58,942 nt of DNA, taken from a virus (taxonomy: Duplodnaviria > Caudoviricetes). The position numbers and the translations under genes were made by a program. The notes under the pieces are model-generated. The model was not told the origin of the DNA, did not search any database, and saw only the letters and a list, made by a program, of their open reading frames with translations. The stretch spans positions 1 to 58,942 of the IMG/VR virus record IMGVR_UViG_3300037722_000252; one strand, 5' to 3'. This document shows, in pieces, positions 16,487-58,942 of this stretch; positions within the stretch are counted from its first letter, which is position 1, and each line of letters opens with the position of its first letter.

Positions 16487-16701
16487 GACAGCGACGTCCG
16501 ATCGTCGATGGTGTCCGGCTCATGCTCTCCGCACCAACTCGACGATCCGACATCGGGCCATACACCGCCCGGGCCGTGCCTCACGACCGGCGCGCGTCGT
16601 CGGCACCACCCCAGCACCCGATCTTCGCGGGCGTCACTACTAGGCAATTCATCGCCGAGTGGCTGAAAGAACTTGCACGTTCGGCACGTGGGCACGCTCA
16701 T
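16483..16701 (-). CDS. Small 4-Cys metal-binding protein
   Basis: CRTC...WCRR...WCGEH. Confidence 0.6.
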   Translation of the reverse strand: MSVPTCRTCKFFQPLGDELPSSDAREDRVLGWCRRRAPVVRHGPGGVWPDVGSSSWCGEHEPDTIDDRTSLS

Positions 16702-27873: not shown

Positions 27874-28156
27874 GCTTCCTCCGGGGGCGGATGAGGCGGG
27901 CAAGATGTTCCTCGCATCCACGCACGGGCAACCGCCAGTGGCGGTCCTTGTGAGCGCCCGGTATCTCCTTGGCCGCCCGCGCCCACCACTTCGGGCTCCG
28001 GCTGTAGCGTCGGCTCGCCTGGACCGTCGTGATGTAGACCGGCCCCGCGTCGGTGAGCGCGGTAGCGAGCTCGTCGAGCGTCATGTCACCCGAGCCCACA
28101 ACCAAGGACACCCGCGTGTCACCCGGAAGGCTCGCGATCGTAGCTGCCAGGCTCAT
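27818..28156 (-). CDS. Excisionase-like winged-helix protein
   Basis: YITTVQASRRY...IPGAHK..HWRLP; overlaps the int start. Confidence 0.6.
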   Translation of the reverse strand: MSLAATIASLPGDTRVSLVVGSGDMTLDELATALTDAGPVYITTVQASRRYSRSPKWWARAAKEIPGAHKDRHWRLPVRGCEEHLARLIRPRRKRGPWHRRSEIAHSVAGRL

Positions 28157-32200: not shown

Positions 32201-35157
32201 AGCGTGAGGGCGGCGCGGAGTCCGCACCGGGAGCACTTGCCGCACGCGGTCCCTAGGGACTCGTCGCCTCGGCACCATAGGCCGGGTGTATCGACGGCCC
32301 GCCCCAGCGCCTCCTCTACGACCTCCAGCGGGTTGCGGGGCTCAGGCATCGAAGGACTCCCTGCAAGGCGCGAAATCGGCGGGGATGCCGTCGCGGTAGT
32401 CGAAGCCGTGCTCGGCCTCGAAATCCTCGACCATGCACCCGAGCACGCGCCTGCCAGCGAAGTAGTCTGCGTGTACGTTGAGGCAACGGGCGCACGTCCG
32501 GTACGTCTCCCACTCACCGTCGTAGAGGCCGCGCACGTACTCGTGAAGATCGCCGACGTTGATCGTCACGGCGCACTCGCAGCAGCAATGCGGCTTGCGT
32601 GCCTTGACGAGCTTGGTCGTACAAGGCTCCATAGTCTCGCCTTCGTCGTACTGCCAGATGCAGCTACTCGTCATCGTCCCCTCCAGTGCTGGTGTCGCGA
32701 CTCACGCCGAGGCATCCACCGATCAGGAGAACGAAGAACCCGAACCAGGGGTGGCCCTCTATCACGAGGTATGTCCCGGCTCCAATGGACCCCAGGAACG
32801 CCACCACGAATGCGAAGTAGATCACTCGTCCCCTCCCGTGCTGGGCGGGAACGCTTGCAGGTGCTCGATCAGCACTCCGCCAGCGCGGCCCGTGACCTTC
32901 ACCACGACGGCCCCGTGGCCGAGACGCCAAGCCTCGCTCCGCACCTTGACCCGCTCGGCGTGCATGTCGCAGCGAACCGGGTGGTAGAGCATTTCGGTGC
33001 CGATAGGATGCTCAGCACTCCAAGCTTCAGGCGTCATCGTCCCCTCCCGTGCTGGGCGTGAACTCCAATTCGTGCTCCACGACGGCCGCACCAATGTCGC
33101 TCGTCACGTCGTACTTCTTGCCGGTCACGACGACGAACCCGCGCGCGTCCACCCGATAGCGCTGTGTGGCGTAGAAGCGACCGGATAGCTCCGAGTAGAA
33201 CACGCGGATAGGTCGCTCAGGCATCGCTCAGCACCTCCACGTACAGCCCTCGCGTCTCGTCCTTCACGACCACCGAATAGTTGGGCTCGCGCTCACCCTG
33301 GCCACGCAACCCGCAACGCATGCGCTCGATATCCTCCGGGCTCCCTGTCACCTTGAGCGTGACGGAGGCAGTCGTGGGGACGGGCTCGAAGTGGCAGCAC
33401 AGGTAGAGCTTTGCGTCTTCCTTAGCGACGAACCACCACGAGCCGTCGTGTAGAACCGGATGCGAGTCAATCGTCCTGACCTTCGCGTCGCACCGCACCT
33501 TCGTCCCCACCGGCCACATCGGCGGCGGGTCTCCGTCGAAGGGGATGACGAGGGCAGGGACGGAGTATGCGTAGCCTTCGTAAGCTTCAATCGGGCAGAT
33601 CGTGTCGCCGTCATCCGCGACCCGTGAATCGCGCTTGCTCATCCACCCCACGAACGCCTCTCGCTTCTCAGGCATCGTCGTCCTCCGTCGTGCTGGGCGT
33701 GAGGGTGCGAGCGGCGAGTCGGTCGAGGTCGCGCTCCATCTCACGGCGTGTGTCGTACCATCCCACGACATCGGAGCGATCGGGCGTGAACGCGAACCAC
33801 AGGACCGGGTTCTCCTTGTCGTGCGGGAACACGTACCTGCTGGGCGACCGCTGGTACGGGTAGCCGCGATATCGACCCACGGTCACAGCGCCCCTCATCG
33901 CGCGACCCTACCGAGCTCAGGATCAGCAGCCACGTCGCGGTTCCACTCGCGCCGACTCGCCTCCGACCGCGCGTGCGCCCGCGCCGTAGCCTCGCACACC
34001 TCGCAAATCTGCAGCATCCGTGACTCACCTAGTGGGCGGTCGCACAGCGAACATTTCGTGACCGGCTCCCACCCGTGGCGACGTGCGTAGTCGAGCACTT
34101 CGGCGTCGGTGACTTCGCGCTCCACCTCTTCTTCTGCGTCCAGCGCGAGCGCGTCGAAGTCCGTGCTCCGGTCGTCTCGCGTCCAGTTCCAGGGGGCGCT
34201 CATAACGAGACCTCGGTCTGTTGGGCGCGGACCTTCTCGGGGCTGGTCGTGCAGTCGCCGCGGTGCTCGCAGCCGTCGAGCGTGCGGCACTCGGCCGGCG
34301 TGAGAGGTGTGCGGATCTCGAATCCCTCACGGGCCAGCTTGGAGACTTCTCGCCATGTGTCGCGGTCGGATTGTTTCGAGACCCCGAGCACCGCGAGCAT
34401 CACCCATCCCCCGCAGACACAGACCGCGACCACGCACTTCCGTTCGTCGCTCATCGGGACTCCTTCGTTGGGCTGTCCGTGGGGGTGGGGCGCTCCCACT
34501 CTCCACGCCGGACGCCGAGGGCGCGGAGCAGTTTCACCCAACCCTTGAAGCACTGGCCATCGTGAACGCGGACCGAGGATGTGCGCGGCCAGAAGTCTAC
34601 GTACTCGGATTGCGGCTTGTCGTAGTGGCAAAGACGGTATCCGTACTCGCCGAGGCGCCGGAGCACGATCACGTCTGGGTGATTAGCGAGACGAGCGAAC
34701 CGCTCCATGCGCTCGGGCTCAATAGTGTCCAGGCGCTCGCGCCGCTCTTTTCTAACGGCTATCCACATCTCGCCCACGTCGCTCACGGTTTCGCCCTGTC
34801 CGTGGGGGTGGCGAGCGCGGCGAGCGTTTCGACTGGGCCCTTGGTGCGTCCGTAGTCGGGGATCGGCTCGACCTCTCGGGTGGCGCCGTGCTTCGCTTCG
34901 GCGGCGGACAGCCACGCGTCCCACGTCTCACCATCCACCTCGGCCTCGGTCGGCAGGTCCGGGTGCTGGCGCAGCACGTCGGCCTTGAGCACGTCGCCCA
35001 CGCCCCCGGTGCCGAACTCGTGCGTCCAGACCGGACCGGACGTCATGAACTCCGCGAATTCGTGGAACGCGCCGAACCCCTCCCTCGACAGCATCTTCCC
35101 GGTCGTGGCAGTCAGTACGACACCCAGCGGAAACGAGCGTATCTCGGCCTGATTCAT
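29287..35157 (-). other. Array of about 20 small coupled hypothetical early genes, several with Cys/Zn motifs
   Basis: Continuous ATGA-type coupling and recurring junction sequences. Confidence 0.7.
30879..31649. repeat. 165-bp direct repeat (30879-31043, 31485-31649; 3 mismatches)
   Basis: Gives genes 30735-31040 and 31242-31646 the same N-terminus MGETRDVPVGSPEDLRGWADWIDG... Confidence 0.95.
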
Positions 35158-35230: not shown

Positions 35231-35815
35231 TCAGAACTCTCCGCCGAAGCGCAGCTCGAGGAGCCGATCCTCGTCGGGCTCGCGATCGTGGGGGTGAGAG
35301 GGCACCGCGTCGTCGCCGTAGTACCACGCGACCCAGTCCGCGCCATGCTCCTGCCAGTGGATGTCCAGGACTTCGCACTCGCGCTCGGGATCGAGGCCGG
35401 GGTTCTCGTCGAGGAACGCGGGCCAGCCGATGTCGCCGACGCGATCGTGGCACTTCCGGCATTGCCGCAGGATGCGCGTGTGGTGAGCCTTGCGGCCCAT
35501 GCCCTCCGTGCCATAGTGCGAGTTATCACACGGCCGTCCGCCGCAACGTGGCGTCGAGCACGGGCCGCCGTGCTTCACAAACAGAACACGCTCGATGCTC
35601 CCGTACTTGCGCGCCCACTCGGCCGCGGCGCGCTCCTCGTCGTACTTGAGCCGGTCGGCGATGCCCTTGCCCGTCTCGGGGCACATCGCTTCGATCGCCG
35701 CCCAAAGCTCGGACGCGTCCCTGTGCCACGCTCCACTGGTGAGCGGCGTGCGGCGTGCGAGCGGCTTGGTGCCGCGCTTGAGCCCGGCCGTCCGCTTCAA
35801 GGGCGTTTTCCTCAA
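35231..35815 (-). CDS. HNH/DUF968-like Zn-binding putative nuclease
   Basis: RKTPLKR N-terminus; PC...C...H...CRKCH. Confidence 0.55.
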   Translation of the reverse strand: MRKTPLKRTAGLKRGTKPLARRTPLTSGAWHRDASELWAAIEAMCPETGKGIADRLKYDEERAAAEWARKYGSIERVLFVKHGGPCSTPRCGGRPCDNSHYGTEGMGRKAHHTRILRQCRKCHDRVGDIGWPAFLDENPGLDPERECEVLDIHWQEHGADWVAWYYGDDAVPSHPHDREPDEDRLLELRFGGEF

Positions 35816-36693
35816 AGCAGCGCACCTTGCTCTTCATCCGCCTCGGCACGGGCGAGCTCGATCCGGATTTCCTCCCACGCCTCACGGGCCGCGACCCACT
35901 CTCCACCGATGATGGCCTGCTGAATCTCCGTCTCGCGGTCGGTCGTGATGAGGCCGTTCTTGCGAGCGAGCGCCGCTTCCTTCGCGAGCGCGTCCATCTC
36001 GTCCTCGGTCAGAGCGTCCGGGTCGGGTTCGACGGGGTCTGTGCCCTTCGCGATCAGCGCGTTGACTTCGTCGTTCGTTGAGCGGTTGGCTTCGATCGTC
36101 GCCCGGATCTCGGCCGCGGATTCGAGCTCGTCGAGCGTATACGTGCCGCCGAAGTAGTCGGGCGCGATCTGGCGCAGGCCGTCGGACAGCGCCCGCCAGT
36201 AGAGCATCTGCTTGGGGTGCTTCGTCCAGTTCTTCTTGGTCGACCGGAACCCGTCGTCGGTTATCGTGACCAGGCCGGCGCGCTGCGCGTCCTCCATCGT
36301 GTATTCGACCGGGAGCGGGTCCCAGCCCTCACGGTGGAGCGTCATCTTGCAGCGCGCGTCGGAGCGCTCGAGGACCGTTTTCTTGACGCCGCAGCGCTGG
36401 ATCGCGAGGGCGTCCATGAGGTGGCCCTCGAGCGCGACCTTGCCGTCAACGAAGTACATGCCGCCGAGCGCCTGCATCAGCGGCACGCCCATCTCGAACG
36501 CCTTAAGCTGGATCGCCATGACGGCTTCGGGCTTCTTCTCCCGGATCATGCCCGACTGGACCAGCATGTTCGCTATCCGCCAGCGCGTATCCATGTGCTC
36601 GGCGAACGCGATCACGACGTCGCCGCGGCGGTCCCATGAATCAGGCAGATCGAGCGCGGTGGTACCGACCTCAGCAGGCAGGTTCTCAGACAT
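35812..36693 (-). CDS. RecT/Bet-like single-strand annealing protein
   Basis: MQAL..MYFVDGK, DAQRAGL, NWTKHPKQMLYWRA, GTYTLDE. Confidence 0.8.
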   Translation of the reverse strand: MSENLPAEVGTTALDLPDSWDRRGDVVIAFAEHMDTRWRIANMLVQSGMIREKKPEAVMAIQLKAFEMGVPLMQALGGMYFVDGKVALEGHLMDALAIQRCGVKKTVLERSDARCKMTLHREGWDPLPVEYTMEDAQRAGLVTITDDGFRSTKKNWTKHPKQMLYWRALSDGLRQIAPDYFGGTYTLDELESAAEIRATIEANRSTNDEVNALIAKGTDPVEPDPDALTEDEMDALAKEAALARKNGLITTDRETEIQQAIIGGEWVAAREAWEEIRIELARAEADEEQGALL

Positions 36694-37672
36694 GGGAATG
36701 CTCCTCCCGGATAGCGACCGAGTCCGGAGGCAGAAGTGCGGGTATCTCGTGCTCCTCCTCGTCGACCTTCGCCCACGCGTACTCGGGCAGGCTGATCGAG
36801 GGGATGTGGTCCGCGGCATGGCCGGGCCACGTATCGTGCTCGAAGCACCACGCGATCTGGCGCAGGTAGCGCGAGCACAGCCGGTCGCCCGCGTCCATCA
36901 AACCCTCGTCGAGTTCGTAGACGACGACCGAGTCAGACGACAACGGTCCTTCCGTCTCGATGCAGAGCATGAACGGATGACGGAAGTCCCAGCCGACCGA
37001 CTTGAGCGCGCGAGCGTAGAAGGCTTCCGAGACGTGGTACTTGAACTTGTAGATGTCGTGGCTGAACACGTCCCAGCGCGCGTTACGGGTCGTCTTCGCT
37101 TGCAGGTTCGCTCCGAGCGGGTCGACCAACTTGTCGGGCCGGAACTTGATGCGGACCCCCGTCTCTGAGTCGGTCGCCACCCCGCTGATCTCGACCGGGC
37201 CGACCATGTGGATCAGCGCGGCGGCCCGAGAGTGCCCGTGCACGGCGTCGCGCATCGCCATCGCCTTCTCGTACTCGGTGCCAGGAACCAGCGTCGCTGC
37301 CGGATACTCGGCCTGGAGCGCCGCGACCTCGGCCTTGTACTTGGACGTGGCGGCTGGATTCGTCGACGGCTTGTCCTCCGCTGTCGTGTGCTTGTTCGGG
37401 TCCGGGACCGGGAGCGGCCGGTAGAGCTGCTTAAGGAAGTCGGGCTCGAAGATCGCCGTGTGCGTGACCGAGCCGAGCGTCTTCGCGGATGTCTCGTCGG
37501 GCTCCGTGCCGCCGTCGAGCGCCCACCGGATGTAGGCCGGCGTGCGGCTCTTCACCTTCTTGGCGAGCGACGATCCGACGAGCGGTAGCGCCAGATACTC
37601 GGCCATCGTGAGTTCGTGGAAGCCGTCAGTCAGCGCGTCGCACTGGCCGTGAATCGAGAGTGAGTTCGTCAT
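36686..37672 (-). CDS. RecE-like PD-(D/E)XK exonuclease (DUF3799-like)
   Basis: GSVTHTAIFEP, KFRPD, AKTT, YHVSEAFY, WPG; paired with RecT. Confidence 0.85.
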   Translation of the reverse strand: MTNSLSIHGQCDALTDGFHELTMAEYLALPLVGSSLAKKVKSRTPAYIRWALDGGTEPDETSAKTLGSVTHTAIFEPDFLKQLYRPLPVPDPNKHTTAEDKPSTNPAATSKYKAEVAALQAEYPAATLVPGTEYEKAMAMRDAVHGHSRAAALIHMVGPVEISGVATDSETGVRIKFRPDKLVDPLGANLQAKTTRNARWDVFSHDIYKFKYHVSEAFYARALKSVGWDFRHPFMLCIETEGPLSSDSVVVYELDEGLMDAGDRLCSRYLRQIAWCFEHDTWPGHAADHIPSISLPEYAWAKVDEEEHEIPALLPPDSVAIREEHSHV

Positions 37673-47565: not shown

Positions 47566-48956
47566 GTCGTGCCCGCTCCGTCGCGTGCGTAGATTTGGAT
47601 GTCGTCGGTCAAGCGATCATGCGTACCGGACTTGTTGCCACCTCCGCCCCACGTGCCGGACGTGACGATCTGCGAGATGCCGCTAGCCCAAGAGCTGCCG
47701 CTGAAATCGACTGGGTAGTGCGCGCCTCGTATCTCGTCGTTGCGGCCAAACGAGACGATCGAGTCGGTGACCGAGATACAGAACCAGTCCTTGACCCACT
47801 GGCCGCGCTCGATCGTATGGCGGCCAGCGTTCGAGCACCCCGGCGCGCCCGTCAGGCTGAAGTTCGGATATGGCATCGTATCCGCGCCCATGAGATTGGC
47901 GAGCAAAAACTTGCAGCCAGTCACGGGGTCGTCGATCTTGTCGCCGAACAGCCACACGCCGCTGAGGTAGTCCCATAGTTCGCGGCTACCGAAGTTGTTC
48001 GGGAAGTGGCCCTTTGTGCCGCCGTTGTTGAGCGTGAAATCGCTGATCCCAACGCCGCATCCGCTGGACGCGCCCTCCCAGCATTCGGTGATGAGGTAGA
48101 ACACGTCCTGCAAGGGCGTAGCTGCTGCGGGGCCGTTCCCGTCTTCGGGGTCGATGCGAAACTTGATGCATCCACCACCACCAAGCCCGGGCGGATACGT
48201 CATCGCCCACACCCACGGCGGTGATCTCATGCCCGCCGCGTCGATCGAGTCGAGCACGCGATCAGCGATGCTGAAGCCGCTCAGCCGGCCACCGCTGCCG
48301 GAGCCGGCGCACACACCTGACGCGGTTTCGTCGGTGACGAGAAAGTTGCCGACCGTCTCGGACTGAAAGCCGTCGCCGGTCACGAACGCGGTGTCGTTCA
48401 TCGGCTCGTCCGACACGAGCGCCCAGCCAGCGGGCAGGTACGCGAGCCCGTCACCACCTGCCGTCGCCTCGAACGTGTCGGCCGGGCTGAACGCGCTCCA
48501 CCCGCCCGCTGCGCCCTTGTGCGCGTGATCGACGTAGTACGACGTGTCGGTCTGGAGCGGGACCGAAGCGCCGAGCCCTGCACCACGCCATGCGGTCAGC
48601 GAGTCGCCCACGGTGTCGGCGAAAACGACCGCGTCGTCCGAGGTTCTGCGGATACGCCACGCGGCCGAGTCCTGCGTGTCCGCACCCGAGCCCGCGAAGT
48701 CCGACGCTGTGACGAGCGCGGAGTTATCCGTGGGCACGACAGCCACGAAGGTCGGCGCGTTCGGAGCGCCCGGCGCTTCGGCTCCACCTTGTGAGCCGGT
48801 CGCGCCACCGATCGAGCCGAACACCGCGAGCCCACCACCGCCCAAGAACCCGACCGCGCCCATCGCCAGAGCAGCAACAGTCGCAGTGATCGGCACGAGC
48901 GGGTGAGAGCGGCCGGTGTCGACCTCGTAGCCGTCAGGACGGACGGTGAGCTTCAC
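47544..48956 (-). CDS. Paralogous lyase/lectin-like protein with N-terminal hydrophobic anchor and Fn3-like domain
   Basis: GTG after GGAGG; YPPGLGGGG, RGQWV, TWGGGGNK. Confidence 0.6.
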   Translation of the reverse strand: MKLTVRPDGYEVDTGRSHPLVPITATVAALAMGAVGFLGGGGLAVFGSIGGATGSQGGAEAPGAPNAPTFVAVVPTDNSALVTASDFAGSGADTQDSAAWRIRRTSDDAVVFADTVGDSLTAWRGAGLGASVPLQTDTSYYVDHAHKGAAGGWSAFSPADTFEATAGGDGLAYLPAGWALVSDEPMNDTAFVTGDGFQSETVGNFLVTDETASGVCAGSGSGGRLSGFSIADRVLDSIDAAGMRSPPWVWAMTYPPGLGGGGCIKFRIDPEDGNGPAAATPLQDVFYLITECWEGASSGCGVGISDFTLNNGGTKGHFPNNFGSRELWDYLSGVWLFGDKIDDPVTGCKFLLANLMGADTMPYPNFSLTGAPGCSNAGRHTIERGQWVKDWFCISVTDSIVSFGRNDEIRGAHYPVDFSGSSWASGISQIVTSGTWGGGGNKSGTHDRLTDDIQIYARDGAGTTCPTSAL

Positions 48957-49104
48957 GCGCCCTCCGCTTCGCCTGGACCTTCGCCGGGACCTTCGCCGCC
49001 TCACGGAGCGCGATCCGTGCGAGCCGCAGCGCCTCGGCCCGCGCCTCGCGCCGCAGAAGACGGAGCAGTTTCTTGGCCGGCATTACCCGCTCTCTCCAGC
49101 CGGC

Positions 49105-49159
49105 CAAAACGAAAGCCCCCGCAGAACACCGGCCGGCTGGCTTCGGTGTCCGCGGGGGC
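49105..49159 (-). terminator. Terminator-like hairpin ahead of the fibre operon
   Basis: GCCCCCGCGGACACCG...CGGTGTTCTGCGGGGGC followed by TTTCGTTTT. Confidence 0.7.
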
Positions 49160-49198
49160 CCGGTATCTCGGGTAGGCCCCGTATCTGTCGGTGTGGAG

Positions 49199-49384
49199 CT
49201 AGTCGGGCTCCACCATCGCGTCGGCGTCCTCGTACTCGAAGACGTAGCCGACCTTCATCAATCTACCCACTCGATAGGACAGAAGCACGACCCCGGTTCT
49301 GCCCTCCATGCGACGCTCGATCGTGTCAGCGCGTGCCTTCAAGCGTCCGACCCACGACGTGATAATGCGACGCACCTGGCTCAT
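49199..49384 (-). CDS. Small protein, possibly YezD/DUF2292-like
   Basis: Helix followed by TGVVLLSYRVGRL; ATGA-coupled to the spanin. Confidence 0.45.
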   Translation of the reverse strand: MSQVRRIITSWVGRLKARADTIERRMEGRTGVVLLSYRVGRLMKVGYVFEYEDADAMVEPD

Positions 49385-50022
49385 TTCAGCACCACCAGCG
49401 CGACCAGTGCGAGCGCCGCGCCGCGTTCGTACCACACCCGCCGCTCTCTCGCCCGGAGCGCGTCGTCTCGTGCGGAGCTCGCCGCCTCCGATGCCGCCAG
49501 CGCGCTCGCGGCGACCTCTGCCGTGTGACGGTGCCCCTCGGCGGTCGTACGCCAGAGCGCGGCATTCTCAGCGGTCGCCGCTAGGCTCACCCTCAGCCCG
49601 GCAGCGACGGCCCGCTCGGCGCTCACCACGTCCGCATGGTCCACGATGATGCGGTCGAGTAGCGCGACGCCGAGCGTATCATCTCGCGTACGTAGGTGGT
49701 AGCGGAGCGAGTCGGTGCGGCCAGCGAACGCGGTGTCTGCCAGCGCGCTCCGCTCTTCGGCCCGCTCGACCTCGACCGTCACCGAGTCCACGACCCGCAC
49801 GAGCACCGTATCCGAGCGCACCGCCTGAGCCTGTAGCGAGTCAGCCCGCTCGCGTGCAGAGGCCAGCGAGTCGAGCGCGACGTCTTTGATCGAGTCCGCG
49901 TACACGATGCGCGCTTCGAACGCCGAGCCCTGAGCGCAGCCCCGCCCGATCAGCACGAGACAGAGCGCGAGCAGCACGGCGGCCAGCCACGATGGCGTAG
50001 ATACTAGGCTCCGGCCGCTCAT
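49381..50022 (-). CDS. Putative unimolecular spanin
   Basis: Signal ending LIGRGC, long helical region, C-terminal TM GAALALVALVVLK; lysis context. Confidence 0.7.
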   Translation of the reverse strand: MSGRSLVSTPSWLAAVLLALCLVLIGRGCAQGSAFEARIVYADSIKDVALDSLASARERADSLQAQAVRSDTVLVRVVDSVTVEVERAEERSALADTAFAGRTDSLRYHLRTRDDTLGVALLDRIIVDHADVVSAERAVAAGLRVSLAATAENAALWRTTAEGHRHTAEVAASALAASEAASSARDDALRARERRVWYERGAALALVALVVLK

Positions 50023-50228
50023 CGGTTCGGGCACCCCCGAGCTTCGGGCCCGTTTCGGGCGCGTTTGGCCCGATTCGGCCAAAGTGGCACGCTCAGGATG
50101 CCCCAGGACGCGCGAGACGGCCGGGGGACGTGTACGGAGTAGGGCGCCGAGTGCTCGCCACCCACGGGGCCACGGTCGCGGGCCGTGTAACAATGTGCCC
50201 GCACCCCCGAAAGTCGGGCGCTTTTCGC

Positions 50229-50257
50229 TTGCGCGCACGGCCAGGGGCCGCTATCGT
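50229..50257 (+). promoter_or_regulatory. Cassette sigma70 promoter
   Basis: TTGCGC-N17-TATCGT. Confidence 0.65.
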
Positions 50258-50303
50258 ATAGGTACGGCGGATTGACCAGCCGGACCCAAGAGAGAGACCA
50301 GAC

Positions 50304-50690
50304 ATGACGATCCAGACCCCCACACTCGACAGCCTGATCGCTGGCCACGATGTATCGGACAGCCGCATGGAGACGCTCTCCATCGCGATGGAACTCGGCG
50401 CCGACGAAGTGACGCTCGCCACGTTGCGCGACGCCCTTCGCCTCAGCCGCGGCACCACGATCGTGCTCCCGGCCCACCGGTACGAGAGCCTCAGCCGTGG
50501 TCGGGGCTGGGCCAGGATGGGGCGCGGCGACAACGCCATATGGGGTGAGCGCACAGACTCCGGTGACTACCGCGTCGGCCCCGGTCGATGGTCCGTGGGC
50601 GGCTCGGACGGCTACCGGCGCAAGGACTCGACGGAGTGGACTGTGCGTCATGTGGCCGTGGGCACGCAGGCGTGGACGATCGCGGACTAA
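50304..50690 (+). CDS. Cassette gene 1, hypothetical (128 aa)
   Basis: RBS; Trp/Gly-rich beta C-terminus. Confidence 0.75.
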   Translation: MTIQTPTLDSLIAGHDVSDSRMETLSIAMELGADEVTLATLRDALRLSRGTTIVLPAHRYESLSRGRGWARMGRGDNAIWGERTDSGDYRVGPGRWSVGGSDGYRRKDSTEWTVRHVAVGTQAWTIAD

Positions 50691-50691
50691 C

Positions 50692-50765
50692 GGCGAAACG
50701 GGGCTCCGGCCCCGTCCCGGAACCGGGAGCCCGGCCCGCCCGACCGGCTGAATGAGCCAGGGCCG
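50692..50765 (+). ncRNA. Type II hammerhead ribozyme candidate with variant core CUGAAUGA
   Basis: GGC-GAAAC-GGGGC-uccg-GCCCC-GUC-CCGG...CCGG-CUGAAUGA-GCC; pseudoknot CGGCCC (50732-37) with GGGCCG (50760-65). Confidence 0.7.
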
Positions 50766-50783
50766 ACCAACGGAGACACGACC

Positions 50784-51395
50784 ATGACGACGTACACAGC
50801 GAGACTCATCGACACGGGAGCGCAGACCGCCGAGAAGCCCTGGGGCATGTATGCCGCCCGGGCTGGCCGCGAGTGGCTGGACGGAGCCTTCGGCTCGCAG
50901 GCCGAGGCCGAGGCCGAGGCCGGGCGACGACAGGCGGCGGCGGCCAAGCCCCCGACCCGCACGATCACGCTGACCGACCGCCCGCCGGTCCGCATCCGTG
51001 AGGACGAGTGGCCCATGATCGCCCAGGGTTCCGGCGACAGCTACGCCGGCAACGACTACGGCAAACACCAGCAGGCTCTGGCCCGCGGCGAGGTCGATGA
51101 GTACACGCTCCGCGCGCGTCAGCACGCCGACGGCCGCGTGATCGTCTACGCTGTGCTCGTCGGCGCGTCGGCGTGGACGGGCAGTGAGGACCGCCGGGAG
51201 GGCGAGTTGCTCGGTGTCCCGCGCCCAGGCGCGAACGACGCTGCCGGGTGGGACGCCTACCGTCAGGCGGGCGGCGAGCGCCATGTCTCGGGCGCGACCG
51301 TGGCCGCCACGATCCGCGAGGTCGGCGAGCGGTGCGGCCTGCCAGACTCCGTGATCCGCGAGTGCATCGCGGACCTGCCGGCCGAAGAGGTCTAG
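50784..51395 (+). CDS. Cassette gene 2, hypothetical (203 aa)
   Basis: GGAG RBS; RTITLTDRPPVRIREDEWP...RQHADGRVIVY...ECIADLPAEEV. Confidence 0.8.
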   Translation: MTTYTARLIDTGAQTAEKPWGMYAARAGREWLDGAFGSQAEAEAEAGRRQAAAAKPPTRTITLTDRPPVRIREDEWPMIAQGSGDSYAGNDYGKHQQALARGEVDEYTLRARQHADGRVIVYAVLVGASAWTGSEDRREGELLGVPRPGANDAAGWDAYRQAGGERHVSGATVAATIREVGERCGLPDSVIRECIADLPAEEV

Positions 51396-51399
51396 GCCA

Positions 51400-51458
51400 G
51401 GTGAGGGACGGGGGCCGCGCGGCCCCCGGTAAACCGCACGGCCGGTCCCAAGCCCGGC
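51400..51458 (+). ncRNA. Circularly permuted (P5-type) twister ribozyme
   Basis: GGU-GAGGG-[8-bp P1 hairpin]-UAA-ACC-GC-ACG-GCCGG-UCCCAAGC-CCGGC; conserved twister elements and both pseudoknots are present. Confidence 0.85.
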
Positions 51459-51478
51459 CACCACCACAGGGATATCGG

Positions 51479-51721
51479 ATGACGACGACCGCCGGCTACA
51501 TGGCGCGCGCGCTGGCTCGGGGCGAGTCACTCCCCGAGCCAGTAGCGCTGCGTCCCGAGGACATCCGCGAGTGGCGCATCGCCGAGAGCCTGACGCAAGT
51601 CCAGGCCGCGAAGATCGCAGGCGTCGGCGCGCGCGCATGGCAGCGCTGGGAGGGCGGCGAGCGCCCGATACCCGAATCGCTGCGAGACGTGCTCGCGCAC
51701 CGCTGGGGGTCCGCTCCGTAG
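51479..51721 (+). CDS. Cassette gene 3, XRE-family HTH protein
   Basis: IREWRIAESLTQVQAAKIAGVGARAWQRWEGGERPIP. Confidence 0.88.
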   Translation: MTTTAGYMARALARGESLPEPVALRPEDIREWRIAESLTQVQAAKIAGVGARAWQRWEGGERPIPESLRDVLAHRWGSAP

Positions 51722-51755
51722 GCGCGAGCAGCACGGCGACGGCGAGGCGGTCCAT
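51722..51755 (-). pseudogene. Displaced original 5' end of the spanin gene (MDRLAVAVLLA)
   Basis: ATG coupled to the upstream stop (TAATG); in frame with the spanin through the 17-bp repeat. Confidence 0.7.
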
Positions 51756-52183
51756 TACCCGTGCACGTCCGGTCGGAGCCAGTGCTGGTGCAGCATCCAG
51801 TGGAGCATGACCGCGGTCATTCCGCCGAGCAGCCATCCCTCCCAGCTCGGCACGTAGGCCGCAACGGTACGAGCCAGCAGGAACGCGATTGGGAGCGCGA
51901 CGATGTCGACGAGCCAATTCCAGCCGGTGCCCGGACGATCGTGCTTCGACAGATGCTTGACGACCCACGTCACGACCGCGGAGAGCGTCCAGCGCCAGTT
52001 CAGCCGGAGCGCGACGAACTCGCAGGGGAAGAACGCGAGCAGCGTCACGAGCGCGAAGCGTGGCCCGTGCGACTCACCGAGCCAGATGTGCGCGAGCCAC
52101 ACGTCGGCGTACCAGATCGTCCAGAGCCAGCCGAACACGAGGTGCGGAGCGTGCTTCGGCACGTAGCGCTCGGCGGTCGTCAT
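51755..52183 (-). CDS. Multi-TM membrane protein (holin candidate)
   Basis: About 4 hydrophobic segments; follows the endolysin. Confidence 0.6.
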   Translation of the reverse strand: MTTAERYVPKHAPHLVFGWLWTIWYADVWLAHIWLGESHGPRFALVTLLAFFPCEFVALRLNWRWTLSAVVTWVVKHLSKHDRPGTGWNWLVDIVALPIAFLLARTVAAYVPSWEGWLLGGMTAVMLHWMLHQHWLRPDVHG

Positions 52184-52698
52184 CCCACCTCCCCATCCCA
52201 ACAGGGATCGATGAATGTGACCCGGTAGCCGCTGTCGAGCTGCCGCGTCCGGACCGCGACCGCGTCGCCGTCGCGCTCGTTCTCGGCCGCCGTGTTGCCC
52301 TCGACGCTCGTGAACAGCGGTGAGCCGACCTTCGGGGGCCGCACCACCATGCCGATGTGGTCCCAGCGAGCGCCGCCGAAGCTGAAAAGCACAAGGAAGC
52401 CCGGACGGACGAGTTCGATCGGCACCTGTTGGGCCTGCAGCAGATCCCAGTAGTCCTGGACGTAGGCCTCGCGACGGACCGCGTCGAGCGGGTTGGCGAC
52501 TCCGAGCTGGTGGGCTGCGGTGTCGAACCCGCTTTGCACCTCCGCCGCGCACCACGGAGCGCCCTCGGGTAGCGGCGGGTCGAGATCGGCGAGCAGCATC
52601 CGGACGAACGTGCCGCGGTTGTTGCCGCCCTCCTCGCCCATGCCGAGCTTCGCGTCGCGGAGCATGCAGCCGAGGGCGGTCAACTCAAGGCCCCTCAC
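52180..52698 (-). CDS. Endolysin, CHAP-family amidase
   Basis: E.GGNNRG, PWCAA, HIGMV, VEGNT. Confidence 0.9.
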   Translation of the reverse strand: MRGLELTALGCMLRDAKLGMGEEGGNNRGTFVRMLLADLDPPLPEGAPWCAAEVQSGFDTAAHQLGVANPLDAVRREAYVQDYWDLLQAQQVPIELVRPGFLVLFSFGGARWDHIGMVVRPPKVGSPLFTSVEGNTAAENERDGDAVAVRTRQLDSGYRVTFIDPCWDGEVG

Positions 52699-52702
52699 CG
52701 TG

Positions 52703-53113
52703 CTACTTGCCCCACGGGATCAGCCCGCGCACCGACTCGAACGGCAACCGATTGCCGGCCACCATCGCGCCGAGGAACGCGGCGAGTTGCACGACCTCGG
52801 AACCGCGCGCGATCCCGCCAAGGAACGCGGCGACACACATCGCGATCCCGATCCAGCCAGTAATCGTGCGCTGCTTGCGATCCACGTCCGATGCGCGGCG
52901 CCCGTACTCGGCTTCCTGCGTCTCGATCTCTGCCATCTCAGCGTCTCCGTTGGAGTTAGCGAGCCGACGTACGATGCCGGCCGCCTTGTTCAGCGCGTTG
53001 ATTGCGTCCTCGATGTCGTCCAAGTCCCGAGGATGTGTCAGCCGACCCTTGAGCAGGCCGAGCGTCGATATCGCTACGTGCAGGTGCCCGTTGAGGTTGT
53101 TCCATACGTTCAC
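52703..53113 (-). CDS. Holin-like 2-TM protein with an N-terminal HisKA(DHp)-like helical hairpin
   Basis: GTGA-coupled start; second in-frame ATG at 52936 with GGAG; two TM segments immediately before the endolysin. Confidence 0.6.
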   Translation of the reverse strand: MNVWNNLNGHLHVAISTLGLLKGRLTHPRDLDDIEDAINALNKAAGIVRRLANSNGDAEMAEIETQEAEYGRRASDVDRKQRTITGWIGIAMCVAAFLGGIARGSEVVQLAAFLGAMVAGNRLPFESVRGLIPWGK

Positions 53114-53628
53114 GCATCCGCGCGCCTCCACGCGGCTCTCCCGAACAGGCCGAACGCAGTGAGACGCGACGCTTGGTAGGCGGCCCACCAGGGCATGAAC
53201 GCGGCGTAGTCGTCGATGCGCGCGACCATCAGAAGGTAGAAAACCGTACCGAATCCGCAGTAGACAAGCATCGGAGCCCACATCCGCGTATCCTTCGCGA
53301 CCACGAGCACAAAGACCGAACCAGCGACGGTGCCCACGATGTCCGGGCCCGCGAAGTCGGCCGTCACCGCCTGGCCGATCGACAAGCCAACGAGCAAGGC
53401 CCCGAGCGAGGGCCGACCGAGTGCCCACAAAACCAACCCGAACTGGGCAGGCGAGAGCGCGTAGTAGACCGCCCACGTCCGCGTGCCCGTCAGGTTGAGC
53501 GCGACGAGGTCGGCGATCGCGGAGAGCGCGAAAGCCGCCGCGATCATCCAGTGCCGGCCGTCCCTCGAACCGAACAGCGCGAGAACAGCCGCGGGCACGA
53601 ATGCGAGCAGGTGGGCAGCAAGCAGCAT
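53110..53628 (-). CDS. Polytopic membrane protein (about 6 TM, 172 aa)
   Basis: Almost wholly hydrophobic; TGATG-coupled. Confidence 0.75.
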   Translation of the reverse strand: MLLAAHLLAFVPAAVLALFGSRDGRHWMIAAAFALSAIADLVALNLTGTRTWAVYYALSPAQFGLVLWALGRPSLGALLVGLSIGQAVTADFAGPDIVGTVAGSVFVLVVAKDTRMWAPMLVYCGFGTVFYLLMVARIDDYAAFMPWWAAYQASRLTAFGLFGRAAWRRADA

Positions 53629-53927
53629 CAGAGGCAGTCCTGCGGCGGCCGGGGCGGGCAGGTGTAGGCCGCGTTGCCGACGTACAGCAGTTCGTCTCCG
53701 CTCCGCACGATGATCCACGCCTCGGGGTTGCCGTCGGCGTCGAGCCCGAGCTTGACGATCAGCCGGGCCTTCACTTCGCGTGCTTTCGCGATCGCGGTGT
53801 CGAGCGCGTCGCGGATTTGCACGAGCAGGATCGGATCGTCGAACCCGTAGGAGTCAGGAACGTACAGCGCGTTCTCTCGGCGCTTGACCGAGGCGCGCAT
53901 CTTCGCCAGTTCGTTGTGGTAGCTCAT
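53628..53927 (-). CDS. Hypothetical protein with C-terminal CPPRPPQDC
   Basis: 99 aa; ATGA-coupled. Confidence 0.7.
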   Translation of the reverse strand: MSYHNELAKMRASVKRRENALYVPDSYGFDDPILLVQIRDALDTAIAKAREVKARLIVKLGLDADGNPEAWIIVRSGDELLYVGNAAYTCPPRPPQDCL

Positions 53928-54283
53928 GGGATCAACCCCTTGGCATAGGTGAGTAGGTGCATCGCAAGGCTCGCGAGCGCGCTGATCGCGACCGCCCACT
54001 TGCCGTACACGGCAAGCCGCCTCTCCTCACGTTCGCCGCCTGGCCGCGCGTCGGCCAGCCTGTCCACCCTCTCCGTGAGCACGTTCACCTTGTCGCCGAC
54101 CGACAGTAGTGTGGCCACCACACCGACCTCGCCGTTGTAACCGCGCAGCGTGCGGTCGCTGCGTTCCACCACCTTTGCCACCTGCCCGAGAGTGGCGGCG
54201 TGATGCTGCACGTCGCTCGCGAGACCGGCGAGCTTCTGCCAGCCCTCCCGGTCGAGGTAGCCGTCACGACGTTCGTCGGGCAT
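53924..54283 (-). CDS. Coiled-coil protein with C-terminal TM (XhlA-like lysis accessory)
   Basis: LRGYNG..G motif, heptads, C-terminal anchor. Confidence 0.6.
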   Translation of the reverse strand: MPDERRDGYLDREGWQKLAGLASDVQHHAATLGQVAKVVERSDRTLRGYNGEVGVVATLLSVGDKVNVLTERVDRLADARPGGEREERRLAVYGKWAVAISALASLAMHLLTYAKGLIP

Positions 54284-57917: not shown

Positions 57918-58942
57918 GCTAGCCTGCACTCGGCCAACGAGACCACGCCCGGCAGGATTGCCACCTCACGCATCGGGTTGAGCCCATGACCACTCGTACC
58001 GTCGCTGCCGATATAGAGCCGCTCGGCGGCCCACGCGTCCGTGAACGGGACCGCGCTCGACGCTGCCGTGACCGTCTCCGTCGCTCCGTTGATCGACTGT
58101 CCGATCAGCACGGAGCCGTCGGTGTTGACGACTGCTCGGATCTCGTGCGGCAATCCGAACGTCGGGCCCACGCCGAGTGTCGCCGTCTGCGGACTTACCC
58201 CGTCGTCGTGCGTGATGCCGTAGCGGTTCGAGTTCTGCCGGATCGCGATTCTCGGGTCCGCGCCTGCCGTCGCGCTGCCGATCTTGAGCAGATGGCCCGA
58301 GGTCTCCAAGTAGGTGCCGAACTCGTAGAAGCGGAGGTAGATCGTGACGCCGCCGGCGGATACAATGTGGCGGGGGCTGAACTCGAAACCAGCGTACAGC
58401 GTATCCACGTTTCGGACCTCGGACGCATCCAGGATCGAATAGCTCGGCGCGAGCGCATCGAATACGTTGACCCGATACACGTCGATTGAGCCGGTCGCGG
58501 TGGCCGTCTCGGCCGGCCGGATCCGGACCTCGTTGGTGTTGGCGGCCGTAATTGCGGTCGCGAGCCCGTAGATCACCCAGTAGCCGTTGCCCGCGTAGCG
58601 CTTGCCGAGATACGTGCCCGTCGCTGCCGTGACCGTCGGCTCGCCGGCTGTCCAACCCGTGATCTGGAGACGGAGCCGCTGCGCCGCGGCGTTCGTGTCG
58701 AACACCTGCAAGAGTTGGTTGCCGGCGCTCGCCATCGTGCGCTCGCGTACCGTGAAGCTGAACGCCTTGACCGCGTCGCCGGTGAACGTTGGAGTACGCA
58801 CCACCCACTCATCGCCGGCCCCGTCGTCGTCCTCTACCGTGTAGGCCCCCGTTCCTCCGGCTGGGTCGTCGATCGAGCCAGTGACGACTGGTGTGCCGAC
58901 CGCCGACCACGCCGTCAGGTCGTCGGACGTGATGAGGTTCGT
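57914..58942 (-). CDS. C-terminal part of the tail-tip/spike protein starting at 762 (LamG/ConA-like C-terminus)
   Basis: Frame continuous through the terminal overlap. Confidence 0.8.
   Translation of the reverse strand, partial: TNLITSDDLTAWSAVGTPVVTGSIDDPAGGTGAYTVEDDDGAGDEWVVRTPTFTGDAVKAFSFTVRERTMASAGNQLLQVFDTNAAAQRLRLQITGWTAGEPTVTAATGTYLGKRYAGNGYWVIYGLATAITAANTNEVRIRPAETATATGSIDVYRVNVFDALAPSYSILDASEVRNVDTLYAGFEFSPRHIVSAGGVTIYLRFYEFGTYLETSGHLLKIGSATAGADPRIAIRQNSNRYGITHDDGVSPQTATLGVGPTFGLPHEIRAVVNTDGSVLIGQSINGATETVTAASSAVPFTDAWAAERLYIGSDGTSGHGLNPMREVAILPGVVSLAECRLA
58802..58942. repeat. Terminal overlap, copy 2
   Basis: Matches 1-141 with one mismatch. Confidence 0.97.

Follow-up and report, generated by a model that had tools for sequence, protein, structure and literature searches.

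A ribozyme-carrying accessory-gene cassette inserted at the start of a spanin-like gene in the lysis cluster of a temperate phage

We find that the gene closing a phage lysis cluster is interrupted near its 5' end by an insertion of accessory genes, a block of 1757 bp. The block was analysed in a window of 58,942 nt, which comprises positions 1 to 58,942 of the IMG/VR virus record IMGVR_UViG_3300037722_000252. It lies between two copies of a 17-bp direct repeat, on the strand opposite to the spanin-like gene that it interrupts, and carries in order ORF1 (128 aa), a hammerhead type II-like motif, ORF2 (203 aa), a Twister-P5 ribozyme and an 80-aa HTH gene (Table 1). As had been proposed, it behaves like a moron, being an opposite-strand island that is absent from some relatives (contig L008 and a contig of run X3) and present in others (the window and record 20 of run X3). 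On balance we favour the view that it is an accessory cassette, or moron, which entered the signal-sequence codons of the last lysis gene by short-homology or illegitimate recombination and whose RNA is cut by ribozymes.

Table 1. Positions of the cassette, its edges and the neighbouring lysis genes in the window
Feature	Coordinates	Strand	Basis or remark
Spanin-like lysis-cluster gene, inserted state, 213 aa, start MSGRSLVSTPSWLA...	49381..50022	-	ORF; six homologues aligned
Left 17-bp direct repeat copy	49965..49981		Part of AVLLA codons in working gene
Cassette-supplied start: ATG and leader MSGRSLVSTPSWL(A)	49982..50022	-	ORF; same leader in P0001, P0003
Stop-free antisense frame, 578 codons	50019..51755	-	Inside ORF 50019-51968
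Hairpin-containing motif, copy 1 (GCACCCCCGA...TCGGGC...TTTCG)	50031..50069		Repeat families D4, D8
Hairpin-containing motif, copy 2	50201..50228		About 75 nt upstream of ORF1
ORF1, 128 aa	50304..50690	+	GC3 0.85
Hammerhead type II-like motif, between ORF1 and ORF2	50692..50758	+	Own motif scan
ORF2, 203 aa	50784..51395	+	241 homologues at E<=1e-3, best non-self 63%
Twister-P5 self-cleaving ribozyme, between ORF2 and HTH gene	51400..51457	+	Rfam RF02684
XRE-type HTH gene, 80 aa	51479..51721	+	Profile matches; stop abuts right repeat
Right 17-bp direct repeat copy	51722..51738		Repeat search
Orphaned original lysis-gene start (ATG GAC CGC CTC GCC GT)	51739..51755	-	TAATG overlap with upstream stop
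142-aa Trp-rich membrane protein, lysis cluster, upstream neighbour	51755..52183	-	ORF ending TAA; hydrophobic segments
Endolysin	52180..52698	-	PHROG endolysin families 21825 (E 1.5e-6), 21357, 9589; weak CHAP, E 0.071

The repeated sequence, GCGCGAGCAGCACGGCG, is present exactly twice, with a start-to-start distance of 1757 bp, and the positions in Table 1 bear out the preliminary description on this point. Both copies encode AVLLA, as it had stated: the left copy does so in the frame of the working lysis gene, whose start is MSGRSLVSTPSWLAAVLLALCLVLIGRGC, and the right copy as part of MDRLAVAVLLA, read from an ATG at 51755-51753. This ATG had been described as coupled to the preceding lysis gene, and it does overlap the stop of the 142-aa membrane protein gene as TAATG. 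Likewise, the stop codon of the HTH gene is flush with the repeat (TAG at 51719-51721, directly preceding 51722). The repeat by itself is within chance, two matches at <=2 mismatches being reached in 5 of 100 shuffles and at least one repeated exact 17-mer occurring somewhere in 30 of 60 windows simulated by a Markov-1 model. We therefore take it as real from its placement and from the empty-site allele, not from repeat statistics. No further copy at <=2 mismatches was found in the rest of the window, the surroundings of the phage integrase included, and a repeat search found no terminal inverted repeats at the two ends of the block. The three block ORFs matched no transposase or recombinase family in Pfam, PHROG, NCBIfam and PADLOC searches, which agrees with the earlier view of a unit that has no recombinase gene of its own. 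The absence of terminal inverted repeats and of a transposase family speaks against a transposon or insertion sequence. The exact repeat and flush HTH stop are tidier than most illegitimate joints, a counterpoint to a joint of that kind.

The empty site was found as DNA in a metagenome contig (L008), in which the same flanks are contiguous around a single 17-mer. Positions 924-1395 of this contig match window positions 52193-51722 at 90.5% identity and positions 1379-1897 match 49981-49463 at 87.4%; the overlap of the two matches is exactly the 17-mer, and identity adjoining the site is 100% over 60 nt and 98.7% over 79 nt. Run X3 also gave one contig with the empty site as DNA. Proteins P0002 and P0004 start MDRLAVAVLLALCLVLIGRGC, exactly as predicted for the uninterrupted gene, and short MDRL-like starts recur in P0005 and P0006, which are more distant homologues, so we regard the short start as the ancestral form. 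The DNA of L008 and proteins P0002 and P0004 thus confirm that the unit is an insertion relative to uninterrupted, MDRL-starting alleles. Neither a cassette-less relative starting MSGRS nor a general lack of empty sites was encountered: L008, the one relative readable as DNA, has the short start, and P0002 and P0004 agree with it. The filled state was seen in the window and in record 20 of run X3 (51477-51771), which comes from a different study and reads across the right junction, continuing for another 33 nt. Two proteins from other assemblies (P0001 and P0003) have the MSGRS start of the window, with the leader fused. The filled state is not an assembly artefact, given this bridging record and the fused leader in these proteins.

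The interrupted gene is predicted to keep working, because a start codon and the first 14 residues come from the left end of the cassette, which is fused in frame at the repeat; that the unit provides a replacement N-terminus had been recognized from the outset. The leader has a GC3 of 0.71 vs 0.83 in the gene body and contains the rare codons CTA, GTA, TCT and CCA. The layout of the orphaned start is identical to that of the working start in L008. The 213-aa protein is hydrophobic near its N terminus, rich in Ala, Glu and Arg in its middle part and hydrophobic again over a short C-terminal tail, and it matched no Pfam, PHROG or NCBIfam family; the name spanin is a putative one, given for its position and this architecture. 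Its signal had been called a clean lipoprotein signal, which it is not. The motif G-R-[GS]-C is invariant in 7 of 7 homologues, with Arg at -2, and on account of this Arg a PROSITE-style lipobox rule, written as our own regular expression, fits 0 of 7. P0001 is the one protein in which the hydrophobic C-terminal tail, of about 13 residues, rises above our own Kyte-Doolittle threshold. With or without the cassette, the gene product is full-length and keeps its conserved Cys and an unchanged hydrophobic core at the N terminus, and the proposed switch in outer-membrane lysis is not supported. Upstream, the 142-aa membrane protein matched no Pfam, PHROG or NCBIfam family and has a homologue at the same place in L008, where the lysis order (endolysin, membrane protein, spanin-like gene) is also the same. 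The L008 sequence is 99.4% identical over 156 nt and then changes to a DUF5675 gene in place of the window's endolysin, which points to sharp-edged module swapping at this locus.

The cassette has a G+C content of 71.5% vs 66.9% for the window. Most long coding-like frames in the window are on the minus strand; ORF1 and ORF2 are on the plus strand, with GC3 values of 0.85-0.89. On the minus strand of the cassette, the frame opened by the orphaned ATG crosses the entire insert for 578 codons until it stops at a TGA which, as ATGA, overlaps the new start codon, and the other two antisense frames contain 13 and 6 stops. Of 5000 simulations 0.4% were stop-free, with a mean of 5.3 stops. From this arrangement of the sequence, translational coupling may be kept across the insert by termination and re-initiation at ATGA. 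The window has other antisense frames of 510-590 codons; since frames of this length occur elsewhere in this G+C-rich genome, the open frame may be compositional.

ORF1 is modelled as a helical N-terminal part followed by a beta-sandwich (pLDDT 97.2). Its family comprises 139 cluster representatives at E<=1e-3; no Pfam, PHROG, NCBIfam or PADLOC family was matched, and a structure search gave no PDB match at E<=1e-3, VIA being the best at Z 5.2. The conserved domain of ORF2 spans about residues 55-203, and its homologues occur at 51 IMG/VR loci. The ORF2 model (pLDDT 85.7) weakly resembles WGR domains (Z 4.6-5.2, TM 0.41-0.44), with no clear fold match in structure comparison. PADLOC gave no match for ORF1 or ORF2, and no similarity to known anti-defence proteins was found. 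The two families are independent, ORF1 being present in 0 of 51 ORF2 loci and ORF2 in 0 of 12 ORF1 loci. At the two closest ORF2 loci the gene adjoins peptidase-M15 lysis genes on the opposite strand. The HTH gene has homologues in P0267 and P0268 and matches repressor families in PHROG. Its Pfam matches (HTH_31, E 7.3e-6; MqsA, 2.1e-4; Aca2_YdiL, 7.4e-3) are all below the curated cut-offs, and its NCBIfam matches (MqsA-type, 2.6e-7; VC1465 family, 7.9e-7) cover the HTH part only. An Aca-type regulator was rejected, Aca2_YdiL scoring 16.9 bits vs a cut-off of 23.8.

The earlier suggestion of a ribozyme in the cassette is confirmed by the Twister-P5 match, which scores 55.8 bits vs a gathering score of 37.6 (E 6.3e-9, model positions 1-58 of 58) and is the only Rfam match above gathering score in the window. 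Its MFE z-score is -2.43, and we predict a cut after U51430, from the cleavage position known for twister ribozymes. A homologous twister (53.5 bits) lies in the same place after the ORF2 homologue of locus L016 (3414-3469); the two have the 3' half in common and the differing hairpin still pairs, which, with two sequences, is minimal covariation. The second motif, between ORF1 and ORF2, consists of GAAAC, a 7-bp stem III, GUC, stem I, CUGAAUGA and GGC/GCC closing stem II. Its three helices are in type II order with stem II open (4, 3 and 7 bp in stems I, II and III), a layout that matches the Rfam-confirmed type II hammerhead at L014 1672-1736. The core CUGAAUGA has one extra A after A6 vs the canonical CUGANGA ... 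GAAA ... UH. Rfam Hammerhead_II (RF02276) gave 14.4 bits (E 1.2) in a 131-nt search, below the gathering score of 37, and the structure was not recovered by MFE folding; motifs with this 8-nt core arose by chance at a rate of 4 per 10 shuffled sets of 363,611 nt. Judged by its sequence, the motif is probably a slow or decayed ribozyme. An A6a insertion is described as a low-activity natural hammerhead variant (PMC3088659).

By our own scan, 7 of the 51 IMG/VR loci have a same-strand ribozyme beside the ORF2 homologue and the other 44 have none; canonical ribozyme motifs numbered 0 in 10 shuffled sets. Among 20 loci examined, Rfam confirmed L014 (two Hammerhead_II) and L016 (Twister-P5). The ORF2 family is tied to ribozymes, and its members are often bracketed by a hammerhead or twister. 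This arrangement, a phage gene bracketed by ribozymes, is already published and not new here.

The cassette also carries a repeated hairpin-containing motif, which may be an operator or an RNA structure. On the minus strand, copy 1 precedes the new ATG by 9 nt; it is 81-87% identical to copy 2, around which run X2 showed 9 clustered differences (50197-50214). A scan of the cassette gave no promoter matches of the sigma-70 type, which may not be the type used by the host, and a single weak terminator-like site, which lies on the minus strand.

We propose a single arrival of the cassette as most likely, through short-homology or illegitimate recombination. This could have been Campbell-type integration of a circular fragment or unequal crossover between two lysis-gene alleles, and either route would leave the shared 17 bases on both sides. 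The cassette would then have spread among related phages by homologous recombination in the flanking lysis genes. The phage encodes RecT-like (35812-36819) and exonuclease VIII-like (36686-37672) proteins besides its integrase (26809-27921), and the first two make such spread plausible; cassette loss by precise exchange between the two 17-mers is possible for the same reason. The old start, still coupled to the upstream gene, would now open the stop-free antisense frame that ends as ATGA on the new start. The cassette would be transcribed from its own strand, and its RNA cut by the twister and perhaps slowly by the hammerhead-like motif; cleavage would yield separate ORF1, ORF2 and HTH RNAs, with ends of the 5'-OH and cyclic-phosphate kind. 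The HTH protein is probably a repressor of the cassette that acts through the repeated hairpin motif. We infer the insertion route, RNA processing in vivo, coupling, autoregulation and any roles of ORF1 and ORF2 from this organization.

The same ends would suit a family of recombinase-less site-specific elements, with the HTH 3' end, the 17-bp core and the leader as attachment site and the signal-sequence codons of this lysis gene as target, moved in trans by a recombinase of phage or host and reversibly excised. We regard this as unlikely, although it accounts for the exact core at both ends with one copy in the empty site, and for the replacement start carried by the unit; integrating elements that target gene ends often bring such a start. 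Several carriers also accord with it. P0001, with the leader, and P0267, with the HTH, each come from a 4150-nt Logan contig, presumably one and the same, for which no ORF2 homologue is listed; it seems to have both ends conserved and its interior changed. The last 55 residues of P0267 are identical to those of the window HTH and its first 80 are different, and an HTH homologue of 56% overall identity still ends YRWGSAP. Run X2 gave near-identical cassette pieces with unlike flanks, their match ending on the left at 50165, with 551 further nt unlike, and on the right at 51732, inside the 17-mer, with 11 nt of the core kept. Contigs from the source sample break at 49981 and 51751, which would be the branch points expected at the repeat edges for 31-letter words, and P0270 begins VLLALCL, as though its 11,713-nt contig ended within the 17-mer. 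The conserved ends of P0001/P0267, the YRWGSAP end and the limits of the X2 match are all features that fit a discrete element with defined ends. However, the unit contains no recombinase, no core copy or similar sequence lies near the phage integrase or elsewhere in the window, no second target site was seen, and no circle junction was found among joints from four runs of contigs, which drop rare forms. The attL/attR-like nature suggested in the preliminary description is not supported, nor is active excision, the metagenome data giving coexisting alleles. Patterns for the leader, spanin and HTH end retrieved no relatives from IMG/VR, GenBank phages or GTDB genomes. Junction residues, moreover, vary between carriers (SWL/AAVLL, STW/AAVLL and STW/VAVLL), which fits recombination inside a short homologous stretch.

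Alternatively, MSGRS could be the native start and the cassette a once intergenic moron upstream of it, the MDRL stub and the duplicated 17 bases having come from a later unequal crossover. A single illegitimate joint, between the end of the 17-mer of an MDRL allele and the HTH stop, would yield the arrangement without special machinery; mosaic exchange is common at this locus, and the MSGRS-type leader is found on three diverged gene bodies, 70-92% identical. The codon usage of the leader is nevertheless that expected of recruited non-coding DNA, the distant P0005 and P0006 have short MDRL-like starts, and such an origin, which we think improbable, leaves the flush joint at the HTH stop to chance. 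Rather doubtful, too, is the broader idea of an undescribed recombinase-less mobile cassette, with ends set by the HTH 3' end, the 17-bp core and a portable signal-sequence leader, that homes into a lysis-gene start with exchangeable, ribozyme-punctuated cargo and is adapted not to harm its carrier, replacing the start and keeping the 578-codon frame so as to deliver ribosomes from the upstream lysis gene to the new start via ATGA. Finally, an assembly chimera of two co-occurring phage strains, which the several strains in the source sample (variants at 49677 and 49684 in run X1) and its contig breaks at the repeat edges might suggest, is very improbable, as record 20 of another study crosses the right junction, separate assemblies yield the fused leader, and the 17-bp repeat is shorter than the assembler's words.

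Taken as a moron-like insertion, the locus can be compared with several known systems. Unimolecular spanins are of the phage T1 gp11 type, and the interrupted gene resembles them in closing the lysis cluster and in encoding a signal-like N-terminal segment that carries a conserved Cys and, at the C-terminal end, a hydrophobic tail; it differs in its non-canonical lipobox (Arg at -2), short tail, lack of a family match and a middle that looks helical, not beta-rich. The acr-aca anti-defence operons end in an HTH autorepressor, and the cassette similarly has small family-less genes followed by a short HTH gene within the late region, but it shows no known anti-defence similarity and its Aca2 match is weak (E 7.4e-3, below cut-off). 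Integrase-less elements with attachment sites moved in trans include cis-mobilizable elements and users of host Xer. Like them, the cassette lacks its own recombinase and is bounded by direct repeats, of which the empty site has one copy; unlike them, it has no recombinase partner, circular form or second insertion that we could find, and the weak match of its HTH to the NCBIfam VC1465 family, a likeness to Xer activators, involves the generic HTH part only.

Phage morons are independently transcribed accessory genes in late operons, lambda bor lying beside the lysis genes on the opposite strand. The cassette shares with them its position as an opposite-strand block at the lysis cluster of a temperate phage, its presence or absence among relatives and its deviant composition, and departs from them in lying inside a gene between 17-bp direct repeats, in giving the split gene a new start and in that no promoter or terminator was found. 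It shows a phage tolerating an insertion in an essential-looking late gene: a substitute start takes over, and a read-through frame possibly maintains translational coupling. Should the antisense frame turn out to be under selection, it would add a new device to gene-overlap economy. Perreault et al. 2011 (PMC3088659) describe ribozyme-flanked genes in prophages, and hammerhead and twister ribozymes are said to be enriched near particular phage genes for reasons left unexplained (PMC10085705 and PMC4604425, both citing Weinberg et al. 2015). The published cases, so far as these reports go, are not described as splitting a lysis gene, and the ORF2 family differs from them in being defined here from metagenomes. 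As in the published prophage genes, self-cleaving ribozymes bracket one gene on the same strand, the pairs being hammerhead-like and Twister-P5 in the window, hammerhead I and Twister-P5 in L016, and two type II hammerheads in L014. The locus thus offers a compact natural ribozyme-bracketed gene in a temperate-phage cassette, with presence and absence both documented and with exact boundaries, and it makes practical the testing of ribozyme cutting in vivo, of the bracketed gene's role for phage or lysogen and of cassette movement as a unit.

All elements of the preliminary description (the pair of 17-mers, the TAATG overlap, the MDRL reading, the new start and the stop of the helix-turn-helix (HTH) gene) were recovered at their positions. 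The stop codon of the upstream gene overlaps the ATG at 51755 as TAATG, and this ATG reads MDRLAVAVLLA. The ATG at 50022, supplied by the cassette, opens MSGRSLVSTPSWLAAVLLAL, and the HTH stop codon (51719-51721) directly abuts the right repeat. An exact 17-bp repeat is by itself not improbable in the window: two matches to the 17-mer at ≤2 mismatches occurred in 5 of 100 shuffles, and some repeated 17-mer arose in 30 of 60 Markov simulations.

The cassette interrupts the last gene of a lysis cluster in a genome of 58,942 bp and 66.9% G+C, the minus strand of which carries nearly all long coding-like frames. Positions 1-126 are repeated at 58802-58927, leaving the terminal 15 bases of the record unmatched, and minus-strand ORFs continue past both ends; the record may thus represent a circular or terminally redundant genome, though IMG/VR classes it as linear with a CheckV completeness of 85. 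Other repeats were also noted. A direct repeat of ~150 bp (30892-31043 and 31498-31649), made of two exact blocks 606 bp apart, falls in the sole region with longer plus-strand ORFs (31055-33061, without PHROG match) and may be a regulatory or replication-origin repeat. Two pairs of exact 23-bp direct repeats lie between distant genes (17390-17412/52072-52094, connecting the terminase gene with the 142-aa lysis-cluster gene, and 5000-5022/57639-57661); both exceed the 17-mer in length. Aminotransferase-like and glycosyltransferase-like genes (12814-13995 and 15833-16486), between portal and terminase, are further accessory genes within the structural region.

Features of the cassette, the lysis cluster and the phage genome
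Feature	Position	Strand	Remarks
Insert	49982-51738		anatomy read on plus strand
17-mer, left copy	49965-49981		
17-mer, right copy	51722-51738		
Hairpin-containing motif, 27-39 nt	50031-50069 and 50201-50228		two copies in left 250 nt of insert
ORF1	50304-50690	plus	GC3 0.85
ORF2	50784-51395	plus	GC3 0.89
Twister-P5 ribozyme	between ORF2 and HTH gene		Rfam
XRE-type HTH gene	51479-51721	plus	third cassette gene
213-aa spanin-like protein	49381-50022	minus	last of lysis cluster
142-aa Trp-rich membrane protein	51755-52183	minus	after endolysin in lysis cluster
Endolysin	52180-52698	minus	first in lysis cluster; PHROG
Portal	10740-12170		PHROG
Terminase large subunit	16698-18041		PHROG
Head proteins and tape measure			PHROG
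DNA methyltransferases (two)			PHROG
Tyrosine integrase	26809-27921		PHROG
RecT-like annealing protein	35812-36819		PHROG
Exonuclease VIII-like protein	36686-37672		PHROG

Comparison with relatives was decisive. Among 5.8 billion proteins searched, the spanin-like protein had six homologues. Two of these (P0002 and P0004) begin MDRLAVAVLLALCLVLIGRGC, in every letter the product that had been predicted for removal of the unit, while P0001 and P0003 begin MSGRSLVSTPSTW; short MDRL-like starts occur in P0005 and P0006, which are more distant. An uninterrupted relative also exists as DNA. In the metagenome contig L008 (2143 nt), TAATG ends the 142-aa gene and is followed by an uninterrupted lysis gene with a single 17-mer. 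Its two blastn matches to the window share exactly the 17 bases as overlap, and the flanks next to the site are 100% identical across 60 nt and 98.7% identical across 79 nt.

We then compared Logan contigs from four sediment runs (X1-X4) with the region. In X3, one contig joins 49964 to 51722 and omits 1757 bases, with 17 letters compatible with either side; in its flanks this contig has diverged (25 differences in 233 nt). A second X3 contig (record 20, 51477-51771) spans the right junction with the cassette present. In X1, the probable source run, contigs stop at 49981 and 51751 and the next begins at 49952, breaks that would be expected from 31-letter assembly words if a second form diverged at the repeat edges. 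Neither a circle junction nor an empty-site joint was listed for X1, where the empty-junction piece is calculated at 43 nt and was probably too short to be retained or placed; in X2-X4 the cassette was partly without cover. Similarly, P0270, a cluster-mate of P0001, starts VLLALCL, which looks like a contig ending inside the 17-mer. Given the empty-site relatives at the protein and DNA levels and the X3 joints, the insertion and its presence/absence polymorphism are real.

Several other contig joints were seen in this region. Two in X1 run backwards (51748 to 49024, with one letter between and a depth of 11.4, similar to phage depth, and 51097 to 49754); they may reflect a relative with a rearranged locus, a circular form or a chance resemblance. 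A further joint, in X2, links 51746 to 52583 (side 22). At 51749 and 52113, an identical loose-end consensus of high depth (bin depth up to 91.6) recurred in all four runs and likely comes from an abundant unrelated organism with a short stretch resembling the 142-aa gene region.

Searches for further relatives of the locus gave little. Region 48000-54000 had no blastn match among GenBank phages, and neither ORF2 nor the spanin-like protein had a tblastn match there; the latter had no relative in IMG/VR, and an alignment search of GTDB genomes was also empty. In IMG/VR, the pattern of the cassette-supplied leader gave 0 matches and that of the HTH end gave 9, all by chance. A pattern match to the ORF2 motif at another IMG/VR locus (L012) was likewise due to chance, and a locus with a related endolysin (L005) was set aside as its downstream gene differs.

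The cassette had been suggested to uncouple or switch outer-membrane lysis. We see no on/off switch in the sequences, since the empty and filled states both encode a full-length protein with an identical hydrophobic core and the conserved Cys, and three diverged gene bodies carry the MSGRS form intact. The 213-aa protein starts with a strongly hydrophobic stretch, contains an invariant G-R-[GS]-C, is rich in Ala, Glu and Arg in its middle part and ends in a short hydrophobic tail. Of the lipoprotein signal proposed for it, the hydrophobic N-terminus stands, but the lipobox is non-canonical in 7 of 7 homologues; with this lipobox, the short tail and no family match, the name spanin is unproven as judged from sequence.

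In the filled state, a late transcript must traverse 1.7 kb of antisense cassette. The antisense frame of the orphaned ATG is stop-free for 578 codons, and its TGA overlaps the new ATG as ATGA; the remaining two antisense frames hold 13 and 6 stops. When the three proteins were kept, synonymous codons redrawn and spacers shuffled, just 0.4% of 5000 simulations left the frame stop-free (mean 5.3 stops). Composition accounts for part of this, because antisense open frames of 510-590 codons are present elsewhere in the genome. That the frame is maintained so that ribosomes leaving the upstream gene can reach the new start is possible, although we consider it somewhat improbable. A 649-aa antisense ORF was rejected as a gene, because its GC1 (0.83) and GC3 (0.66) mirror those of coding strands.

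ORF1 and ORF2 show the codon signature of real genes and fall into no Pfam, PHROG, NCBIfam or PADLOC family. Structure models were confident for both (pLDDT 97.2 for ORF1, 85.7 for ORF2). Foldseek found nothing at E≤1e-3 for either; the best VIA Z was 5.2 for ORF1, to generic Ig-like sandwiches, and 5.3 for ORF2. By these searches, neither has a convincing solved relative. A weak WGR-domain likeness of ORF2 was the sole recurring lead (Z 4.6-5.2, TM 0.41-0.44), and the protein atlas offered just unnamed viral clusters and this same lead. The HTH gene matches HTH_31, MqsA-type and Aca2-type models, all under curated cut-offs. A sequence scan of the cassette revealed neither a consensus promoter nor a convincing terminator.

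The spacer that separates ORF1 from ORF2 contains a motif that has the complete layout of a type II hammerhead except for its core, CUGAAUGA. It was detected by a helix-checking scan and scores only 14.4 bits with Rfam. Shuffling (10 sets of 363,611 nt) produced relaxed motifs with an 8-nt core 4 times and canonical ones 0 times. Perreault et al. 2011 (PMC3088659) describe an insertion after A6 as a natural low-activity hammerhead variant, and the motif is probably a slow or decayed hammerhead, not an established ribozyme.

The C-terminal domain of ORF2 (~150 residues) has 241 homologues at E≤1e-3, typically of ~130 aa, and the family occupies 51 IMG/VR loci. At 7 of these (L013, which is the same contig as L003, L014, L016, L026, L039, L041 and L060), the helix-checking scan placed canonical hammerheads no more than a few hundred bases away from the ORF2 homologue, in every case on the homologue's strand and never on the opposite one. 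A search at the Rfam gathering level covered 20 of the 51 loci. At this level, two type II hammerheads bracket the homologue in L014, and in L016 a Twister-P5 lies directly downstream of it; the scan adds a type I hammerhead directly upstream in L016, the same order as in the window. L003 and L004, the closest ORF2 loci, had no match at the gathering level. The type I hammerhead of L003 (24.7 bits, E 2.6e-4, under the gathering score) was detected in a 131-nt search and overlooked by Rfam at E≤10 over the whole contig. Three ORF2 loci in metagenome-assembled genomes (MAGs) of 3 phyla had no ribozyme by scan. Hammerheads of the same type occur as pairs in L014 (1672-1736/2407-2471), L039 (2858-2917/4081-4140) and L060 (2855-2906/3938-3989), with one or two small genes, the ORF2 homologue among them, in between. 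Cleavage at such pairs would free an RNA of gene length that has a 5'-OH and a cyclic phosphate at its ends and is a candidate for circularisation.

ORF1 stands outside this ribozyme association. It is absent from all 51 ORF2 loci, and its own 12 IMG/VR loci lack ribozymes, ORF2 and any comparable HTH gene. Accordingly, the cassette is a composite of independently travelling genes. L003 and L004 likewise adjoin peptidase-M15 lysis genes on the opposite strand, and insertion seems to favour the end of the lysis cluster.

The lysis locus is visibly mosaic, and L008 is a sharp module swap: its positions 1-937, aligned with 52180-53069 of the window, are 99.4% identical for 156 nt, a DUF5675 gene then replaces the window's PHROG endolysin gene, and the match picks up again at 90% in the 142-aa gene. 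The phage carries a RecT and exonuclease pair. One short-homology event would account for the 17 shared bases on either side of the insert, whether a circular fragment integrated or two alleles crossed over unequally. The junction residues vary among carriers (SWL|AAVLL, STW|AAVLL, STW|VAVLL), in line with exchange inside a short homologous stretch. Recombination between the 17-mer copies would precisely restore the MDRL gene. Empty and filled alleles both exist, and an active excision process, as had been envisaged, is unsupported.

An element bounded by attL/attR-like sites had also been proposed. In favour of a discrete element with conserved ends, P0267, a homologue of the HTH protein, shares the last 55 residues and differs in the first 80; it comes from a Logan contig of 4150 nt, a length that equals that of the contig of the MSGRS-type P0001, so that the two may share one contig, and no ORF2 homologue is listed for a contig this long. 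Moreover, a 56%-identical HTH homologue retains the YRWGSAP end, and the similarity of near-identical cassette pieces in X2 breaks off at 50165 and, within the 17-mer, at 51732. The leader codons (GC3 0.71, four of them rare and A/T-ending) resemble recruited non-coding DNA, not an old coding start. However, the hallmarks of a dedicated mobile element are missing: family searches found no recombinase or transposase among the insert's genes, a repeat search found no terminal inverted repeats at its ends, the window holds no further similar copy of the 17-mer as a second core, and no circle junction is listed in the contigs of the four runs. The att-site reading is so far unsupported. Action of the phage integrase on the 17-mer was rejected, as nothing similar lies elsewhere in the window.

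Altogether, the original observation is correct and well supported by the empty-site allele, while its att-site, excision and lysis-switch readings, though possible, are unsupported. The unit is best viewed as an accessory cassette, punctuated by ribozymes, that sits inside a lysis gene and brings a substitute start. Published reports describe ribozymes flanking individual genes in prophages and an enrichment of hammerhead and twister ribozymes near particular phage genes, for reasons given as unknown (PMC3088659, PMC10085705, PMC4604425), and the association of ORF2 with ribozymes matches this pattern. Among known kinds, the cassette is a variant both of phage morons and of ribozyme-flanked phage genes.
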